A DNA stretch of 64,000 bases from contig OY843751.1 of NCBI GenBank assembly GCA_963693055.1, forward strand, positions 4,896,001 through 4,960,000, given 5' to 3'. Position numbers and translations under genes: made by a program. This stretch comes from a bacterium (GTDB lineage Bacteria; Zhuqueibacterota; Zhuqueibacteria; Residuimicrobiales; Krinioviventaceae). Shown one piece after another: positions 4,658 to 45,992 of the stretch. The first letter of the stretch is position 1. Each line of letters opens with the position of its first letter. The notes beneath the pieces are model-generated. The model did not search any database. It was not told the DNA's origin and saw only the letters and a list, made by a program, of their open reading frames with translations.

Positions 4658-6418
4658 TTATTCGTTTGATTTTGTACTACGAAACGCAGCCAGTACATCG
4701 TTTTGACTGATTATCCCCAACAGCATGGATGAATTTTCATCATCAATGATGGGTAAATATGTAACATCGCTGTTTTGCTTGAAAATTTCCAAAACTTCGC
4801 CTAATGTCTGGTCCGGGTAAAGCGCCAAAGGTTCGGGCTTTACAAGGTCACGCGCCACAATAAACTTTGCAATGCTTTCATCAAACAAGATATCGCGAAT
4901 ATCCTGATAATCTACAACACCAATAAATTTCTCATTACGATTAATAATAGGAAACCGGTCATATTTACTGTGAGAGATCTGACGCAATATTTCATTAAAA
5001 GGTGTATCTTCGTACAAGGTTTCAACATTTTTGCGCATTACATGTTTTACATATATATCGGCAGCACTTTTGAGATTATGTCCTTTGGGTACACCAATAG
5101 AGGTTCTGAACTGGTCAATAACATGATGCAGGCCTTCATAGGTACCTTCTTTGGCTTTTTTTGAAAGCAGGGTCAACAAGGGCACCTCTCCTGCATGTAC
5201 AAGGGCCTGACGAACTGTAATGGGTCCGGCAAGTTCAAAAAACACCACGGAACCCAGAATAACGGTCTGAATGATCTCTCCGCCTTCTGGCCACTGACGG
5301 GCAAGAGATTGCGACAATCCAATAGCAACACCCGCCTGGGCAATCATTGCATATCCCAGCCAGCGCCGCTCAATGTATCCAAAATCTCCCCATTTGGCGC
5401 CCATCCAGTTTCCCAACACTTTACCGGCGGTGCGCATAATGATATATGCAATACCCAGCAAACCAATGTCTTTCATCACTTCTATATGCAGACTTGCACC
5501 TGCAATTACAAAGAAAAAGACATACAGGGGATAATCGACACTTTTTAACGCTTCAAATAAATTCCGTTCTTTGGGAGAGGCATTTACTATGGTTAATCCC
5601 GTAACAAAACAAGACAAAAAGATATCCAGTCCCCACATCCATGACAATCCAATATTCGCAACAATACCGCCAATAAGCAGCATCAGGTATTCTGTACGAC
5701 TCTCAACATTCTGCGCCCATACACTAATGAGCACACCGGTAAGGAAGCCCAAAACGATGGGGCCAAACATGGCAAGCAAAAACAATGTTACAGAGCCACT
5801 GCTGTTGAGAAGTAAGAATGTAATGATGTTAAAGATCAAAATTGAAAACAGATTATTTAATCCGATCAGTGAAAGCGCAAGGTCCGTTACCGGGCCTTCG
5901 GAATCATATTCACGGATCACCATTAATGACGCTGCGGGTGCGGTTGCAATTGCTATAATACCGGTAAATATGGCCAAATAAATTGAAGATCCCAATAAAC
6001 CTAATGACGCGCCCAAAACAGTCTTGTTGAGCAGCATATTAAACACAAATATGGTGATGGAAACCAGGATAAAAGTAGCTGCCATTTCTGATAAAGATAG
6101 CCGGGCCATACGTTTGCCCCAGCGTCTGAGGGATTGGAACTTGAACTGACTTCCAATGGTCAGCATAATAAAAGCCAGCGCAACATCAGAGATTATTTTT
6201 ACAAATTCCAACACTTCATGGCTGATCAGCTCGGGGTAACCCAGCATATGCGCCATCGACGGGCCTGCTGCCAGGCCTACCAGTAAATAACCGGTAACCC
6301 GGGGAACACGTAAACGTGCGGCAACACGACCAAAAATCAACGCTGCCAGAAAGCAAATACCGGTAGAAAACAAAGTATGGTTAATGTGCAGGTCCAATTC
6401 AAATTCCGAAATAGTCAA
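4658..6418 (-). CDS. Cation:proton antiporter (CPA2/Kef-like) with C-terminal CBS pair
   Basis: LRVPRVTGYLLVG, ATAPAA, FFVIAGASL, AQAGVAIGL, followed by CBS motifs (VKHVM...FPIIN; LLGIISQNDVL). Confidence 0.85.
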   Translation of the reverse strand: MTISEFELDLHINHTLFSTGICFLAALIFGRVAARLRVPRVTGYLLVGLAAGPSMAHMLGYPELISHEVLEFVKIISDVALAFIMLTIGSQFKFQSLRRWGKRMARLSLSEMAATFILVSITIFVFNMLLNKTVLGASLGLLGSSIYLAIFTGIIAIATAPAASLMVIREYDSEGPVTDLALSLIGLNNLFSILIFNIITFLLLNSSGSVTLFLLAMFGPIVLGFLTGVLISVWAQNVESRTEYLMLLIGGIVANIGLSWMWGLDIFLSCFVTGLTIVNASPKERNLFEALKSVDYPLYVFFFVIAGASLHIEVMKDIGLLGIAYIIMRTAGKVLGNWMGAKWGDFGYIERRWLGYAMIAQAGVAIGLSQSLARQWPEGGEIIQTVILGSVVFFELAGPITVRQALVHAGEVPLLTLLSKKAKEGTYEGLHHVIDQFRTSIGVPKGHNLKSAADIYVKHVMRKNVETLYEDTPFNEILRQISHSKYDRFPIINRNEKFIGVVDYQDIRDILFDESIAKFIVARDLVKPEPLALYPDQTLGEVLEIFKQNSDVTYLPIIDDENSSMLLGIISQNDVLAAFRSTKSNE

Positions 6419-6639
6419 TGATCTGTTTGTTAAACATAGACATTCCCGACTAAATAATCAAGATTTATTAAACCGGAACAGGAAATGCGTGGGAAAAGAT
6501 GATGGATGGCAATTGTATATCAAAGCCCTAAAACAAAACGCAAAGAACGCAATATCAGATCGTAATTTTGTAGTAAGGTAAGGGTGAAGTTGAGTTTGAC
6601 AGTGGATTTGGATTTTCACTTAAAAGATTAAATGGATTA

Positions 6640-7533
6640 TTAAAAATTACTATTATTTTTATCAACACATTTTAAAAGCTTCTTACGCCTCATCTCCATC
6701 TTCTTCTTCAATTGCTTAGTCAAAATACTACCGATTAAAGGAATTTTCGATAATCTTTTCCATACAATTGAAGCTGGTAAATCGGTAATAATTGTTGGAT
6801 GACCAGGTGAAATCTTATCAGCTTCTTTAAAATAAAAAATTGATTTTTCAAAATTCATAATTCTAAAATAGTAAATACCTAAATGGAAATTAGTTAAAAA
6901 GTCATCACTTCTTTTTGTTTTGATCTGTAATAAACATTTTATTGCATTTTCATAATCGCCGAGCGAACCCCATATATCCGACTTAATTTGTAACACACGA
7001 ATGTCATCACACAGTTCGTCATAATTCAACAAATTTAATGCATCGCTAAAATTGCCATTATCATAAAAACGTCTAGCTTTTGTTACTATATGGTTCAAAT
7101 TAACTACTTTTGAAACTTTATTGAATATTACAGACGCAACATTTTCAATATTTTCTGTAGAAACTTTCAAATAACTAACGGTTGGCAAAAGTCCAGGTAA
7201 ATCTGATTCATCAATACGCAATGGGATAATGTAATCCGAATCAGGTTCTTCTAATGCTCTTGCTTGTGCTGCTCGCCATTCATGAAGTGTCCATCTCTTT
7301 TCCTTATATGATTGAGAAATCAATATTATACAATAACTAGCCTTATTCATATATATATCGATTAAATATTCAGTTAAATTCTTCCCGAGAAGCTTTGCCT
7401 GCTCATAATCATCATAGAAAACACTTAAACCATGATTGATATAAAGTTTTTTAGCTAATAAGTGTGCTATTTCCCTATCTTCACCTGCAAATGAAATTGC
7501 GATATCATACTCGATCAATATTATTTCCTTCAT
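6640..7533 (-). CDS. TIR-domain (TIR_2) protein with C-terminal TPR repeats
   Basis: YDIAISFAGEDR...VFYDDYEQ...CIILISQSY...WTLHEW (catalytic Glu)...IIPLRIDESDLPGL; TPR-like helices (LGDYENAIKCL, HLGIYYF...EKSIFYFKEADKISP). Confidence 0.85.
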   Translation of the reverse strand: MKEIILIEYDIAISFAGEDREIAHLLAKKLYINHGLSVFYDDYEQAKLLGKNLTEYLIDIYMNKASYCIILISQSYKEKRWTLHEWRAAQARALEEPDSDYIIPLRIDESDLPGLLPTVSYLKVSTENIENVASVIFNKVSKVVNLNHIVTKARRFYDNGNFSDALNLLNYDELCDDIRVLQIKSDIWGSLGDYENAIKCLLQIKTKRSDDFLTNFHLGIYYFRIMNFEKSIFYFKEADKISPGHPTIITDLPASIVWKRLSKIPLIGSILTKQLKKKMEMRRKKLLKCVDKNNSNF

Positions 7534-7586
7534 TGAATTTCACAGCGCTTATCTCAACCAACAAAACCAAAATTTTTAAAAAAAAA

Positions 7587-9281
7587 TTATTTATATCTAT
7601 CCCATGGAATTGCTGTCACTCCATTAAGGAATCTAGATTTGATTTGCCCAAGAATATTAACATCAGACGCAACATGCTGACCAAGATCCGCAAGCTCATG
7701 AATTTCAGCAGGTGAATCGAGACGATAAGTATTAGGCATTGTTATTGTATTAACTCTTAGAAAACGAGGCTCTCCCAACAACAGCTTGGTTTGTTTCAGC
7801 GATGATTCTTGTTGAACATTCATCAACAAGTTGAGTATCTTTTTTTCTCGTAACCAACCAGTTATTCCAGAATCAATTTGGTTTCTAACAGTAAAAGGTT
7901 CGTCAGTTGTTCCAACACTCAAAACATCAATCCTTTCAAGTGGGATTCGAAGAAAACAAACTGATTCAATCACAGCAGCTAAAGCTGGAGAATTCGCCCA
8001 AACTCCTCCATCGAAAAACCTGCTTTCCGTGAGCATATTTGAAATTTTAGCAGCTGTAAAATATGTCGGTGCAGCTGCTGTAGCAAGAGCAATATGGGCA
8101 ACTTCAGTATTTGCATCTAAAGTTAATTCAGGATGATGTGGAGTACGAAAAAGGTGTGAAGCTCCAGCAATGGCATGGTAAGTTGGTATTACCAATCGAC
8201 AACATGAATCTTTCATCCTTTTTTTTACACCACTAAAATAATATGCAGATTCTAATTCTTTCAATAATACTGATTGAGCAAATTTGGGTCTATATAAATG
8301 TTTGGTCTTATGCCTTAGTCTACCCAATAATCGAGTCAAAGGGAAAATAATAGGACCTTTATTTATATAAAAATCAAGAATTTGCTTGGCAGACAATCCA
8401 ATTCCTAAACCAATTGCGAGAATCCCTCCTGTTGAAGTACCAGCGATTAGATCAAAATGATCTGTAATACGTAATCCAGTTTGATTTTCCCAAGTTGCAA
8501 GAGCAGCAGCACTAAATGCCCCCTTTAAACCACCACCATCAAGAGCCAATATTCTAAATGAAACACCTTCTGAGCCACTTCCTCGAACCAAGGGCAATCT
8601 CTCGAGTTGTGAGCAAACCTTTTTAGTTATACTCTCGACATCTGTAAGTATAGAGATTTGACGATTTGTATCAATATCAAAACCATTTTTGAGATAGTTA
8701 AATATATTAGGATTATTTTGAATTAAATCATGTGCAGCTCCACCAAGTCCACCCAGCAAGAAACATGGCAATCCTTTTTCAATCGCATAATTGAGTTCTT
8801 TCGGGATTCCTGCTTTCTCTGCTAATGAAAACCACCATTTACCACCTACAACAACAATAACATCACATCTAGCCACCATCCATTCTCTAAGTAATTCTAA
8901 ACTAACTTCTCGAGCGTTTTCTCCTTTTGCTTCAGGTGTTTCATATACTACAGCATACTTTCTCCATTCAGCAATAGGAACAACTCCTGTATCCTTCGAC
9001 CATAAACGTGAAACTGCAAGAACTAAAGCATCTTTACGTCCACCTTTCTTCTGGTAAGATCTTGACTCTTCTAAAAGAATTGGTGTAAAACTTGGATGAC
9101 TTCCATGAATGATGTGCCCTCCATGCTCAAATACATATCGAGATATAAAACGAACAAAATCCACAATTGTTTTTCTCTCTAAATCAGTAGAGTTCTGCTC
9201 CTCAGGAATAGAACCTGACAACCAGATGCGTGCACCTGATAGAGATTTATAATGATGAACGCCATCTTTTTCATCAGGCAT
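7587..9281 (-). CDS. SLOG-domain + patatin (CapV-like) phospholipase fusion; putative anti-phage effector
   Basis: N-terminal SLOG: IWLSGSIP, HGSHPSFTP, VIVVVGGK...GIPKELNYAIEKGLPCFLLGGLGGAA. C-terminal patatin: LALDGGGLKG, IAGTSTGG (GxSxG), FDGGVWANSP (catalytic Asp). Confidence 0.85.
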   Translation of the reverse strand: MPDEKDGVHHYKSLSGARIWLSGSIPEEQNSTDLERKTIVDFVRFISRYVFEHGGHIIHGSHPSFTPILLEESRSYQKKGGRKDALVLAVSRLWSKDTGVVPIAEWRKYAVVYETPEAKGENAREVSLELLREWMVARCDVIVVVGGKWWFSLAEKAGIPKELNYAIEKGLPCFLLGGLGGAAHDLIQNNPNIFNYLKNGFDIDTNRQISILTDVESITKKVCSQLERLPLVRGSGSEGVSFRILALDGGGLKGAFSAAALATWENQTGLRITDHFDLIAGTSTGGILAIGLGIGLSAKQILDFYINKGPIIFPLTRLLGRLRHKTKHLYRPKFAQSVLLKELESAYYFSGVKKRMKDSCCRLVIPTYHAIAGASHLFRTPHHPELTLDANTEVAHIALATAAAPTYFTAAKISNMLTESRFFDGGVWANSPALAAVIESVCFLRIPLERIDVLSVGTTDEPFTVRNQIDSGITGWLREKKILNLLMNVQQESSLKQTKLLLGEPRFLRVNTITMPNTYRLDSPAEIHELADLGQHVASDVNILGQIKSRFLNGVTAIPWDRYK

Positions 9282-9768
9282 ATTTACCCCTTATCTCAAT
9301 TGCCTTCTCAACCCAATCTTCAAGATTCTTTTTTATATAATCATAAACATAGGTACTTGTTGAATAGGGAGGATTATATGATTTCACAATATTTGCCATA
9401 TTTTCACCATCAACTGTGTATGCAGAAAAGGGATTGCTTCCCATTGATGATTGATTTTCATCCCTATCTTTCAAATTGTGGATGTAAATCCCAAGTAATC
9501 CTTTTCCCTCTTCCCATGCTCTCTTAATTTCATATTTAATCCATTTTCTTCCCGCAGTTTTTGAACCGATTAAGACAATAACAACAGATTTACCTTTAAG
9601 CTGTTCATTTATCCATTTCTCTATGTCACCATCTCCCCCCTTCTTAATTGTCTCCCAATCATTATCCGAAACAGGTTTGTTACCTTCTATAACGCCCATA
9701 TTTCTAACTTGAGATGCCCGCCAATTATCGGGGATATAATGAAAACTATAAAACGCTTTTCGTGCCAT
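9274..9768 (-). CDS. thsB: Thoeris ThsB-like TIR protein (DUF1863/MTH538-like)
   Basis: MARKAFYSFHYIPDNWRASQVRNMGVIEGN...DWETIKKGGD...VIVLIGSKTAGRKWIKYEIKRAW...GLLGIYIHNLKD; RBS GGAG before ATG 9768; stop overlaps the next gene's start. Confidence 0.88.
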   Translation of the reverse strand: MARKAFYSFHYIPDNWRASQVRNMGVIEGNKPVSDNDWETIKKGGDGDIEKWINEQLKGKSVVIVLIGSKTAGRKWIKYEIKRAWEEGKGLLGIYIHNLKDRDENQSSMGSNPFSAYTVDGENMANIVKSYNPPYSTSTYVYDYIKKNLEDWVEKAIEIRGKYA

Positions 9769-10057
9769 TATTTTCTCCAAATAATAATTTAATTTATTAA
9801 TTTTAAAAGCAGAAACCCTCAAAGCTTGTAAACTATATATTTAGAAAGCTAAAAGTTTTATATTAGTTATAGCATAAAGCACTTAATATAAGATTTAAAA
9901 TCTTAATAATAATATTAGTCCACCCAAGAATCCCCAAATCATTTTCTATTTACAACTATAATAAACTAATCATTAACAAACAAATCAAGAGAATTTTAAA
10001 TCTTATACAAATTTAATCCTATATTCCTTTAAATCCCATAAATCTTAATTCAGACAA

Positions 10058-10939
10058 TTACTCCGCATGCTCTGCGCGGGTTTGATTGATCAATCCAAAT
10101 ACATCCTGATTAACATCCACATCTTTTTTATAATACAACTCGTTAACAATATCCGGTCCCTCTCTGGTGAAAACCGCAGCATATACATCAAGACTGTTCA
10201 GATCAATATAAACATCTGCAAAGTGGTCACCACAATTGTGGGACTCGCATCCTTTCAGCACCAGAAAACCATCCTGTATCGCTACAGGCATCTGTACACC
10301 AAATGCGGTTTTGAACGCGTCACATTGATCACCCAGGATCTCTTTTAAAGTATCTTCCACCCCTTCTACCTGCGCCAGCACTTGGTTAGGATATTGGGAT
10401 ACATACCCCGCAAGCGTTTCCGCGGTCAAAGCCTCGGATTGGAGTTGAAAAGGATCATCATCGGTTTCCGTCAAAAAACCCTGTACATATTTCCAGCGGG
10501 ACAACACCTGTCCCAGTTCATCACATTCCGCGATTTCAATCACATCACCAGAGCCTTCTACATAACCCTTTGTGATTCGGTAAAACCAGAATTCCAGCTC
10601 TCCCAGCATTTGATATGATGAATCATCGTAAATGCCTATCACCCGTAAAATCGGGGGAAAACAATTGCCGCCCTGGTGTTCTGACATAATGATCACATCT
10701 TCATCGCCATTCACCCCAGGGAAAAAAGCCTCAACCATGCCCATTCCATATTCACCGTCATTGATCTTGTAAACCTCTTGCGAATTGAGTTTAACTAAAA
10801 GATTCATCCCATTGATTTCCGCAATCTCGAATTCCCCACCAATGGTATTGATTTTTACAGAATCCTCAGCATACACAGTGCTTGTATGAGGTATTATCCA
10901 AATCAAAAGAAATATAAAACCCAATCTCCATGCTCTCAT
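10058..10939 (-). CDS. Exported protein with C-terminal Ivy-like (CxxHxC) motif
   Basis: Signal peptide MRAWRLGFIFLLIWIIPHTSTVYA; VLKGCESHNCGDH resembles Ivy CKPHDCG. Confidence 0.5.
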   Translation of the reverse strand: MRAWRLGFIFLLIWIIPHTSTVYAEDSVKINTIGGEFEIAEINGMNLLVKLNSQEVYKINDGEYGMGMVEAFFPGVNGDEDVIIMSEHQGGNCFPPILRVIGIYDDSSYQMLGELEFWFYRITKGYVEGSGDVIEIAECDELGQVLSRWKYVQGFLTETDDDPFQLQSEALTAETLAGYVSQYPNQVLAQVEGVEDTLKEILGDQCDAFKTAFGVQMPVAIQDGFLVLKGCESHNCGDHFADVYIDLNSLDVYAAVFTREGPDIVNELYYKKDVDVNQDVFGLINQTRAEHAE

Positions 10940-11192
10940 GCAAAACTCCGGAAACAGTTGATCATTTTTATAAAGTTACAAAATTAATGGATCAAAAAAC
11001 ATGCCTGTTTTATTAACTTGACGCGAATTGTGATTAAAAGACAAAACGCAAAGTACGCCAAGAGGTCGCCAGGGACGCTGAGGGAAAGCTCATTCTCTGC
11101 GCTCATTTCTAAATTGCTTCCGATGAAAACAACACGACCAATACCATGATAACGAAATCCTGGGCATCATTGAATCCTTTAATCATGGTTCA

Positions 11193-11370
11193 GATCGTGA
11201 CGGAGTTAAGCGTCAGCGGTCTCCGTCACGGGAAACCTTTTTTCTTGAGTGATCCATACTTGCAAAATAATAAACATCTTGCACAACGGAGATCACTACG
11301 TTTATCTCCGTTGCGATCATTTCTTTTTGATAGTGGTAAAGTTAATCTCCAGCGGTCTCCGTCACGGGAA
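11193..11370. repeat. Three GATC-headed hairpin repeats (family B, ACGGAG/CTCCGT stem)
   Basis: 11193-11234 (+) GATCGTGACGGAG-N15-CTCCGTCACGGGAA; about 11282-11318 (-) GATCGCAACGGAGAT-N10-ATCTCCGTTGTG; 11329-11370 (+) degenerate, sharing CAGCGGTCTCCGTCACGGGAA with the first. Confidence 0.8.
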
Positions 11371-11548
11371 TCATGTAATCTTGTTCATCCTTCAATCTTG
11401 GTTATAATCCTCTACTCTAATCCTTTCAATCATGGTTTTAATCAAGGTTTTCATCACGGTCAAAAATAATATCAGGGTCTCTAACTTTTTCCTTGTACTC
11501 TAGTCTGTTTTTTCGTTTCTTTATGAAAAACAATGGAGAGATAAAAAC

Positions 11549-44813: not shown

Positions 44814-45992
44814 ATGTATAAAAGAGCCATATATCCCATTCTACAAAAACGTTTATCTGAAAAACGCCGGTTCATTCAGGTTCTGGCAGGTCCCAGACAA
44901 ACAGGGAAAACCACACTCGCACAACAAATCCTCAAATCCGGGACCATTCAGGGAATATATGCCTCTGCTGACGGCCCCACTCTGCAGCCCCATTCATGGA
45001 TAGAGCAACAATGGGAGTTTGGCAGACTGGAAGCGAAAAAAGGCTCCACTGTCCTAATATTGGATGAAATCCAAAAAATTGACAACTGGTCAGAAACAGT
45101 CAAAAAATTGTGGGATAATGATTCATTAAACAATATTCCTCTTTATTGTATCATTCTAGGTTCATCACCTCTATTAATGCAAAAAGGACTATCTGAAAGC
45201 CTGACCGGCAGATTTGAAGTTATCCCGGTTACGCACTGGAGCTTTCAGGAAATGCAGAACGCCTTTGATATATCATTAGAACAATATATCTATTATGGCG
45301 GATATCCTGGTGCAGCAGAATTAATTGCGGAACCAGACAGGTGGCAAAACTATATATTACACTCTTTAATAGAACCTACAATCTCTAAAGACATCTTACT
45401 CATGACCCGTGTAGACAAACCTGCATTGTTGCGAAGATTATTTGAACTGGGTTGTCAGTATTCAGGTCAAATTTTATCTTTTCAAAAAATGTTGGGTCAA
45501 CTCAAAGATGCGGGCAATACCACCACACTGGCGAATTATTTGGAGCTATTGGGGCAGGCCGGTTTGTTAACAGGCCTCTCTAAATATGCCGGCCAAAAAG
45601 TCAGACAAAGGGCATCAAGCCCCAAGCTACAGGTATTAAACACAGCATTAATGGCAGCACTGGGGAATACACGTTTTGAAGATACATTAAACAATAACCA
45701 ATTATGGGGACGATTTGTAGAGTCAGCAATTGGGTCGCATTTAGCCAACAGCAGTCGTTCAACTCAAATAAAAGTTTTTTACTGGTCAAGCCGTAACAGA
45801 GAAGTGGATTTTGTACTGGAAAAAGGTGACAAGCTTGTTGCCATTGAAGTAAAAAGTCATAATAAACCGGCTTTTCTTCCGGGTATGGATGCATTTTCTA
45901 ACGAATTCCCGGTTACAAAAAAATTACTTGTAGGGGGAAATGGTATTCCTGTTGCGGAATTTTTAACAACACCGGTTACAGATTGGTTCTGA
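44814..45992 (+). CDS. AAA_14 ATPase + DUF4143 (PD-(D/E)xK-like) protein
   Basis: GPRQTGKTT, ILDEIQK, LGSS, ESLTGRF, YGGYP, C-terminal EVDFVLE...AIEVKS. Confidence 0.9.
   Translation: MYKRAIYPILQKRLSEKRRFIQVLAGPRQTGKTTLAQQILKSGTIQGIYASADGPTLQPHSWIEQQWEFGRLEAKKGSTVLILDEIQKIDNWSETVKKLWDNDSLNNIPLYCIILGSSPLLMQKGLSESLTGRFEVIPVTHWSFQEMQNAFDISLEQYIYYGGYPGAAELIAEPDRWQNYILHSLIEPTISKDILLMTRVDKPALLRRLFELGCQYSGQILSFQKMLGQLKDAGNTTTLANYLELLGQAGLLTGLSKYAGQKVRQRASSPKLQVLNTALMAALGNTRFEDTLNNNQLWGRFVESAIGSHLANSSRSTQIKVFYWSSRNREVDFVLEKGDKLVAIEVKSHNKPAFLPGMDAFSNEFPVTKKLLVGGNGIPVAEFLTTPVTDWF

Follow-up and report, generated by a model that had tools for sequence, protein, structure and literature searches.

The locus described here raises the question of which signal would switch on a phospholipase whose gene overlaps that of a TIR-domain protein and has no CD-NTase gene beside it. 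An earlier note on this DNA had proposed a Thoeris-like operon of three co-oriented genes in an AT-rich block, in which a TIR-made nucleotide is read by a SLOG domain and answered by a patatin domain fused to it. Sequence comparison and structural modelling lead us to a related reading, which we hold at a probability of about 0.72: the locus would be a predicted defence system and a Thoeris variant, with, as its effector, a CBASS phospholipase that SLOG has brought under the control of a TIR-made signal.

A low-GC block at a variable site

Within the window (the whole 64,000-nucleotide stretch that was analysed), all three open reading frames were recovered where they had been placed, on the minus strand and inside a 3.5-kb low-GC block (positions 6508–10013, no strand assigned). 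The block has a GC content of 33.8% as compared with 39.4% for the genome (4.8% of the genome's 3.5-kb segments are as low), and the GC3 of its genes is 0.21–0.29, versus 0.42 in two flanking genes. In a genome of the same genus (G001) the block is absent and its site carries a repeat array and a Y1 transposase instead, with flanks that align at 92% and 86%. The block is a recent insertion at a variable site; no terminal repeats were found bounding it and no integrase or transposase lies within it. Positions 5500–11000 are covered without difference by contigs from two runs of a single sample (probably the one from which the genome came, and not independent support), so nothing obvious points to an assembly error at the block junctions. 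Short contig pieces in the same search were AT-rich chance matches.

A promoter scan of the locus gave a chance-level result (19 versus 16.5), and no terminator-like site was found there. The earlier statement that CD-NTase, SIR2, macro and caspase genes are absent was borne out for the block by inspection of its open reading frames and by Pfam, PADLOC and NCBIfam profiles. The surroundings in the window are mostly housekeeping genes; the scan of the 44 other window proteins gave a single further clear PADLOC candidate, PDC-S01.

The first gene of the block (positions 9274–9768, minus strand) encodes a 164-residue stand-alone ThsB-type TIR protein, recognised by Pfam ThsB_TIR (PF08937, E = 7.7e-27) and PADLOC ThsB (1e-74). 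The closest solved chains are 8wcf (E = 5e-44) and 6lhy/9b7d (E = 2e-19). Its catalytic glutamate is Glu80, within the WIKYEI motif as previously described, and was kept in all 56 aligned ThsB-group proteins. The stop codon of this gene overlaps the start of the fusion gene by 8 nt, confirming another observation of the earlier note; the same overlap occurs in loci L008, L010, L012 and L025. We regard this TIR protein as a core component, and predict that it acts as phage sensor and signal synthase.

A CapV-type phospholipase joined to a ThsA-like SLOG domain

The 564-residue fusion protein (positions 9281–7587, minus strand) was confirmed to combine a SLOG domain (Pfam LD_cluster2, E = 6.9e-13) with a patatin domain (Pfam Patatin, E = 9.6e-23). 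The patatin domain (residues 239–564; positions 7587–8567, minus strand) contains a GGG motif at residues 249–251, K253 and a Ser/Asp dyad (S283 and D424), the latter kept in 169 of 169 close fusions and 30 of 30 distant ones; the structural model is unreliable at residues 405–427, a region that includes D424. The likening of this domain to CapV can be made more specific: it scores 243 bits with the NCBIfam CBASS_lipase profile (cut-off 200) and matches AbCapV (8zr9) with an E-value of 1.5e-28 and a structural Z-score of 27.4. Identity with the anti-phage phospholipase DS2_1 was rejected (82 bits, where the cut-off is 400). In an LG+G4 tree, 44 fusions form one branch nested among CapV-like enzymes with support of 91/78, which is below the starred level, and the fusion effector probably arose once, through addition of a SLOG domain to a CBASS CapV.

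This ancestry complicates the assignment of a sensor. In AbCapV, residues K149, D159 and E207 are required for activation by cGAMP (PMC12480259), and they map to R379, D389 and E439 of the fusion (a map that leaves out AbCapV R279). The window's own subfamily retains all three (166, 165 and 169 of 169 close relatives, respectively, against a mean conservation of 80% across the patatin domain), as do stand-alone CapVs, in which K/R, D and E/D are retained in 10 of 10. The inherited pocket could thus also bind a nucleotide, either the adenine end of the TIR signal or a cyclic dinucleotide made elsewhere, giving an effector that needs both sites or that answers Thoeris or CBASS signals. We consider this quite unlikely, since most distant fusions have an eroded pocket (R379 kept in 18 of 30, D389 in 9 of 30 and E439 in 26 of 30), as do enterobacterial ones, searches of the genome and the fusion loci gave no CD-NTase, and the residues may have a structural role or merely reflect inheritance; the K and D positions are likewise lost in three of four plasmid fusions. 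We give somewhat more room, while still regarding it as unlikely, to a subfamily phospholipase mid-way from CBASS, with SLOG and a working CapV pocket, that responds jointly to TIR and CD-NTase signals or else detects, via SLOG, a novel molecule of TIR origin, the E2-containing versions being CBASS operons in which a TIR replaces the cyclase. SLOG is the likelier sensor; it is not the sole candidate, because the patatin domain of this subfamily still carries the CapV nucleotide-contact residues.

The SLOG domain (about residues 13–232; positions 8586–9281, minus strand), assigned by Pfam LD_cluster2/STALD and a structural model, is the predicted signal receptor. Among the SLOG structures compared, ThsA has the closest fold (Z-scores of 16–17 for ThsA SLOGs; for 7uxs, Z = 16.5 with an rmsd of 3.0 over 182 aligned residues), and LOG phosphoribohydrolases score 13.0–13.6. 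Identity to the ThsA SLOG is about 19%, the sequence alignment to 7uxs is weak (E = 0.18; 6.7e-5 for SeThsA), and a phmmer search of the PDB with the SLOG domain alone returned no matches. When the ThsA contacts (10.1101/2022.05.07.491051) are placed on the fusion through a residue map, those to the diphosphate and distal ribose are retained, with G23, S24, R132, G158 and E162 matching BcThsA G289, S290, R371, G399 and E403. By this weak alignment, five of the eight ThsA residues that contact 3'cADPR are matched, two differ and one is unaligned. The unmatched contacts are the adenine-side and lysine ones (L326 corresponds to P63, K388 to W149 or its neighbour K148, and Q359 is unaligned). R132 and E162 are each present in 30 of 30 distant fusions, a set collected with a SLOG profile and one in which SLOG conservation is therefore favoured. 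The signal would probably be ADPR-based and need not be 3'cADPR.

TIR genes adjoin the fusion in most loci

The proposal that SLOG-patatin homologs neighbour ThsB-like TIRs was examined in other fusion loci (86 in all searches for CD-NTases and TIR-TPR relatives by BLAST, 63 non-redundant ones for the TIR counts), and it held. Purpose-built profiles found a TIR gene within 3 kb in 54 of the 63 loci, and 57 when Pfam, PADLOC and NCBIfam profiles were added; where each flank extends for 1.5 kb or more, as in 30 loci, 27 have one, and in 44 of 63 a same-strand TIR lies within 150 nt of the fusion. TIR density is 0.51 per kb near the fusion versus 0.014 per kb beyond 3 kb, a contrast that is favoured because the purpose-built profiles were made from near neighbours of fusions. 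No TIR was found in six of the 63 loci; in four of these the sequence on one side ends within 200 nt, which is not the case for L045 or L006.

A CD-NTase profile able to recover eight of nine left-out sequences found none in either the 86 fusion loci or the genome, a SMODS search was blank, and a PF21654 search (run without a positive control) also gave no CD-NTase. The control was positive, with a CD-NTase beside 10 of 11 stand-alone CapV-like relatives. Membership in CBASS was rejected on the grounds that no CD-NTase is present in the operon or was found in the 86 loci or the genome, and RefSeq gives these fusions a misleading name, 'CBASS cGAMP-activated phospholipase'.

Two or more TIRs lie within 3 kb of the fusion in 29 of 63 loci, and a Thoeris survey cautions that, in unverified types, the TIRs may themselves be effectors that deplete NAD. 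These points could suggest that no diffusible signal is involved, and that the TIRs deplete NAD or bind directly to the fusion, which within an island rich in TIRs would serve as their partner or as a parallel effector. We find this very unlikely, as the adjoining TIRs are for the most part small ThsB-family proteins that stand alone and the SLOG pocket is invariant in distant fusions. Furthermore, the TIRs belong to several clades and flank the fusion on one side or the other, so a shared small molecule suits better than a fixed protein interface.

The fold shared with LOG phosphoribohydrolases leaves another role for SLOG, that of an enzyme or buffer that processes the TIR product, with the lipase released upon loss or conversion of a basal signal in a guard-type logic. 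Such a role may hold for the ThcA of type III Thoeris, to which the fusion shows weak similarity (35 bits), and ThcB4-ThcA adjoins the fusion in L032, L086 and L108. This reading appears highly improbable for the fusion: ThsA SLOGs score higher than LOG enzymes, ThcA/ThcB4 occur in only 2 of the 63 loci, and the two loci that lack a visible TIR despite their flanks fit an effector that is harmless without signal.

The third gene of the block (positions 6640–7533, minus strand) encodes a TIR_2-TPR protein (Pfam TIR_2 1.9e-17, TPR_8 1e-5; Glu85) and starts 53 nt downstream of the fusion. Its start is uncertain by five codons, because the database call is 292 residues and the open reading frame 297. 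About 58 TIR-TPR relatives were counted among 94 matches to this family; searches of plasmids and of genomes of the phylum gave TIR-domain or partial matches only. The gene is thus present as described earlier, but not as a conserved part of the system: BLAST found relatives in none of the 86 other fusion loci, and a profile of its TIR family matched in one of 63, a different 432-residue protein on the opposite strand. A fixed three-gene system was ruled out on this basis. We consider it an accessory gene, which may encode another sensor or act in defence on its own, and lean against its feeding the same effector as the ThsB TIR.

The fusion itself is a large and widespread family. Full-length copies were found on 13 plasmids. 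Copies occur next to Tn7, in 4 of 5426 complete E. coli genomes and in 1 of 167 genomes of the phylum; an E. coli cluster that holds TIR and fusion genes together with ThcB4-ThcA lies at 204904–211578 of NZ_CP034659.1. Viral contigs contributed one full-length fusion among 14 loci, and a 400-genome sample of another phylum yielded no new fusion. A TIR-linked lipase might conceivably serve stress signalling, anti-plasmid defence or lipid remodelling, and the mostly housekeeping surroundings in the window, with PDC-S01 as the single other clear candidate, would agree with a function other than against phage. Of the alternatives weighed here we judge this the least probable, given the patchy presence and low GC of the locus, the plasmid and Tn7-adjacent copies, and the RM, integrase and Thoeris genes among the neighbours of the fusion.

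A probable Thoeris variant with a phospholipase output

Our preferred reading, a Thoeris variant that signals through SLOG, has two core genes, the ThsB TIR and the SLOG-patatin fusion. Upon phage infection the TIR protein would make an NAD-derived ADP-ribose signal, which the SLOG domain would bind; the signal-bound SLOG would then switch on the CapV-type phospholipase allosterically, probably through a change of oligomeric state as in ThsA and CapV, and the active enzyme would degrade the cell's own membrane, resulting in abortive infection. We infer each of these steps, from phage trigger through membrane lysis. The TIR linkage, the lack of a detected CD-NTase, the intact SLOG pocket and the catalytic dyad lend comparative support to the mechanism first proposed, and its three-gene make-up is what we discard.

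In the wide sense of Thoeris, the locus has a stand-alone ThsB-family TIR with its catalytic glutamate and an effector consistently linked to such TIRs (57 of 63 loci, and the 8-nt overlap here). It resembles type I (ThsB and a SIR2-SLOG ThsA that responds to 3'cADPR) in its TIR, its ThsA-fold SLOG and often several TIRs. It differs in that SLOG and patatin domains fill the fusion and leave no SIR2 NADase, the output is a patatin, the SLOG lies at the N terminus and belongs to Pfam cluster 2, and the adenine-side contacts differ. With CBASS CapV (AbCapV 8zr9; PMC12480259) the fusion shares the dyad, the three pocket residues and a score above the CBASS_lipase cut-off; unlike CapV, it has an additional SLOG domain, a TIR partner and no CD-NTase found. 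Type III Thoeris likewise combines multiple TIRs with a SLOG protein, and ThcB4-ThcA adjoins the fusion in some loci, one on an E. coli plasmid, but ThcA-type proteins are SLOG-only, of cluster 3, and lack a lipase. By NCBIfam, the window proteins reached 35 bits for ThcA (cut-off 110) and gave no match for ThcB4.

Eleven Thoeris types are verified. A recent preprint (Yirmiya et al. 2025, 10.64898/2025.12.03.692087) validated seven of ten tested configurations, and its list of 29 putative effector types that accompany ThsB-like TIRs includes phospholipases. The effectors of its types V–VIII, X and XI have other domains (for XI, 'a hydrolase'), and by Pfam none of the domains named for types V–XI (DUF2270, DUF6650, SLATT, CMP hydrolase-TPR, ThsJ, ion channel, hydrolase) was found here, types IX and XI being loosely defined. 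Its main text mentions no patatin, and no SLOG for a new type, and the fusion family may or may not be among its predicted types. SLOG, LD_cluster2, patatin and ThsB were all without a match in the supplements of PMC13069673. No experimental characterisation of a SLOG-patatin fusion was found in the literature searched. Because the family is common, eleven Thoeris types have been verified and phospholipases are already among the predicted effectors, novelty is lower than first estimated.

Databases currently label the fusion family as CBASS. Cheap testing is possible from the E. coli copies, and a purified SLOG-switched lipase would make a convenient reporter with which to identify the signal in SLOG systems of cluster 2. 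Type III signalling is described as uncharacterised (10.64898/2025.12.03.692087), and the fusion copies next to type III genes may help explain it. If correct, our reading would add a Thoeris type with a phospholipase output, and would describe an effector moving between signalling systems: SLOG is added as a sensor to a CBASS lipase, whose original cGAMP site disappears in many lineages.

Gene content and setting of the cassette

The three genes predicted in an earlier note are present on the minus strand as described, and the cassette is real and intact. The first (9768-9274) encodes a 164-residue ThsB-type TIR protein (Pfam E-value 7.7e-27; PADLOC ThsB 1e-74) whose Glu80 is the catalytic glutamate that the note had placed within WIKYEI. 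It overlaps by 8 nucleotides the start of the gene for the 564-residue SLOG-patatin fusion (9281-7587), in which Pfam recognizes SLOG cluster-2 and patatin domains. A TIR_2-TPR gene (7533-6640; Pfam) starts 53 nucleotides past the fusion. The genome carries a second TIR_2 gene outside the window (G000:C1:5008966-5009310), and a strong match to PADLOC candidate PDC-S01 (E-value 1e-174) lies at 44814-45989 on the plus strand.

The block containing the cassette (6508-10013) has a GC content of 33.8%, versus 39.4% genome-wide, and a GC3 of 0.21-0.29, versus 0.42 for flanking genes. In a genome of the same genus (G001) the flanks of the block align at 92% and 86%, and the site is instead taken up by an array of repeats that includes a Y1 transposase. 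A search of 167 genomes from the phylum detected the fusion in the window's own genome alone; the other five matches were short stand-alone patatins. We therefore conclude that the block was acquired recently and is patchily distributed. In G001 (L101:6360-9150) this is a long array of palindromic repeats surrounding a 177-residue Y1 transposase, which we take to be REP/RAYT-like; its presence at the same position marks this intergenic site as a turnover hot spot. Related repeats are found at 11189-11375 of the window, and at the right junction of the block (10008-10060) lies a short repeat with roughly two dozen similar copies genome-wide. A perfect 15-nucleotide inverted repeat 5' of the ThsB gene (9887-9901 and 9993-10007, 91 nucleotides between arms) is possibly an operator or the remnant of a small element.

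Linkage, distribution and origin of the fusion

Using the fusion as sole query, we collected 86 loci (6 genomic and the best 80 of 112 metagenomic), which were reduced at 90% identity to 63. On the question of whether SLOG-patatin homologs neighbour TIR genes, posed in the earlier note, our own profiles placed a TIR gene within 3 kb of the fusion at 54 of the 63 loci, rising to 57 with library matches in L024, L073 and L086. Where at least 1.5 kb was available on both sides (30 loci), 27 contained a TIR gene and 16 two or more. TIR density was 92 per 180 kb at less than 2 kb versus 2 per 146 kb beyond 3 kb, a contrast favoured by the derivation of the profiles from near neighbours; the near TIRs were independently confirmed by Pfam. 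The catalytic glutamate is present in all 56 aligned ThsB-group proteins. Four of the six loci without a TIR are cut less than 200 nucleotides away on one side, and two (L045 and L006) are not, the fusion of L006 being interrupted.

A CD-NTase profile that recovered 8 of 9 left-out sequences found no such gene in the 86 loci or the whole genome, widening the note's statement that none is present here. At control loci of stand-alone CapV-like plasmid genes (11 opened of 23 partial matches), a CD-NTase adjoined in 10 and a TIR was in view in 1. The proposed three-gene operon is not a fixed unit: the TIR-TPR gene, which has a family of its own, was found next to the fusion in none of 86 other loci, and the second TIRs found there are of other kinds. 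The core of the system is therefore a TIR plus the fusion.

The fusion belongs to a large family. Of 8000 candidates scored in a protein search, 3870 matched; the 120 matches listed had at least 94% query coverage and 62% identity, with both Pfam domains in 119. When representatives at 50% identity were searched with a SLOG profile, at least 29 more full-length fusions (31-47% identity) appeared among 150 matches listed. Of 36 plasmids with a match, 13 carry a full-length fusion, many being enterobacterial, as do 4 of 5426 genomes of E. coli. In RefSeq (H1-H13) most full-length fusions are labelled 'CBASS cGAMP-activated phospholipase'; the four regions opened contain TIR genes and no annotated cyclase. 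The same SLOG occurs in receiver-SLOG-patatin (P0105), two-SLOG-plus-patatin (P0217) and TIR-SLOG (P0330, P0352, P0356) proteins, and Burroughs and Aravind reportedly predicted SLOG-TIR links by comparative genomics.

An LG+G4 phylogeny of 59 patatin domains (long-branched L091 omitted) placed 44 fusions in a single clade (support 91/78, short of the starred level) that falls within a set of CBASS-linked enzymes. The clade's sister, a stand-alone CapV-like protein from the cyclase-less Gloeothece plasmid NC_011732.1 (L126, 17977-22523), is a candidate intermediate state. That plasmid has four TIR genes, a nucleotide kinase, an NTP pyrophosphohydrolase and no annotated CD-NTase.

At 6 of 63 loci an E2-like gene is close to both the TIR and the fusion, and at 5 it separates them, with a divergent HTH/ImmA-type gene confirmed upstream in 3 of those 5. 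This variant (L003:4615-7680, L004, L005, L075 and L079; also L069 and L076-L078; some with a divergent HTH/ImmA pair) mirrors the order of CBASS short-E2 operons, four of our CBASS controls having the order CD-NTase, E2, CapV and three of these the HTH/ImmA pair, although the controls' E2s belong to a different subfamily (no match by tblastn). The variant may be a conjugation-regulated Thoeris. Its TIRs share a conserved C-terminal tail ending in NPPKPW plus two residues. At L017, L018:1239-1643, L046:4049-4498 and L052, the clusters that hold the fusion and ThsB-type TIRs also include a small hydrophobic gene of the PDC-M50A type, which may encode another effector responding to the same signal.

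Two putative pockets in the predicted effector

In an AlphaFold model of the fusion (pLDDT 75.8, pTM 0.80; poor at 368-378, 405-427 and 461-494), the N-terminal part matches the ThsA SLOG 7uxs (Z 16.5, rmsd 3.0, 182 aligned). LOG-type SLOGs score lower (Z 13-14), and a SLOG serving as an enzyme or guard seems very improbable to us. The available text of 10.1101/2022.05.07.491051 lists the 3'cADPR contacts of BcThsA as G289, S290, R371, K388, G399, E403, L326 and Q359. In a weak profile alignment (numbered from the chain range) G289, S290, R371, G399 and E403 correspond to fusion residues G23, S24, R132, G158 and E162, while L326 falls on P63, K388 on W149 (next to conserved K148) and Q359 is unaligned. 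Judged from this alignment, contacts to the core of ADP-ribose seem to be retained, but those for specificity do not. R132 and E162 are each present in all 30 distant fusions, which came from the SLOG profile search.

The C-terminal part resembles AbCapV (Z 27.4, rmsd 3.7, 294 aligned). Its lipase motifs (GGG 249-251, S283 and D424) are present in 169 of 169 close relatives, and S283 and D424 each in 30 of 30 distant fusions. Of the cGAMP contacts of AbCapV given in the available text of PMC12480259 (F147, K149, D159, E207 and R279), the first four correspond to L377, R379, D389 and E439. The F147 position is uninformative because it is aromatic in none of 10 stand-alone controls; the other three residues are present in all 10. 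The window's subfamily retains R379 in 166, D389 in 165 and E439 in 169 of 169 members, and the 30 SLOG-retrieved distant fusions in 18, 9 and 26, respectively. Of four plasmid fusions, which were retrieved with the full-length protein as query, three have likewise lost the K and D. A two-site effector, a reading on which both the retention within the subfamily and the losses beyond it bear, is unlikely.

Classification and proposed mechanism

The cassette is probably a defence system that resembles Thoeris and has a chimeric effector; a role other than anti-phage is extremely unlikely. CBASS membership was rejected by its defining genes (CD-NTase not found), as were type I and type III Thoeris by theirs. 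We found no published description of a SLOG-patatin effector in a search that most subscription literature lay outside. A Thoeris survey (10.64898/2025.12.03.692087), in its available text, reports eleven verified and 29 putative types, with seven of ten tested configurations validated, and mentions 'phospholipases' once and patatin never; the family may be among its listed types or its failed tests.

Alongside the directly observed genes, residues, TIR linkage, mobility and lack of a detectable cyclase, we propose, by analogy with Thoeris and CapV biology and with a probability of about 70%, that phage would activate ThsB, which would convert NAD to an ADPR-derived signal. The SLOG would bind this signal, a change in oligomer state would open the lipase, and the membrane would be degraded and infection would abort. 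Among solved chains the ThsB-type TIR is closest to 8wcf and BcThsB, and it also matches PADLOC PDC-M50B; its sequence leaves the signal product unfixed. That the TIRs work without a diffusible signal strikes us as quite improbable.

Type III ThcB4 and ThcA were detected above cut-off beside the fusion at L032, L086 and an E. coli plasmid locus. In the last of these (NZ_CP034659.1, L108:4427-11101), five TIR genes, the fusion and ThcB4-ThcA form one cluster adjoining a Tn7-like tnsD, which provides a ready test system.
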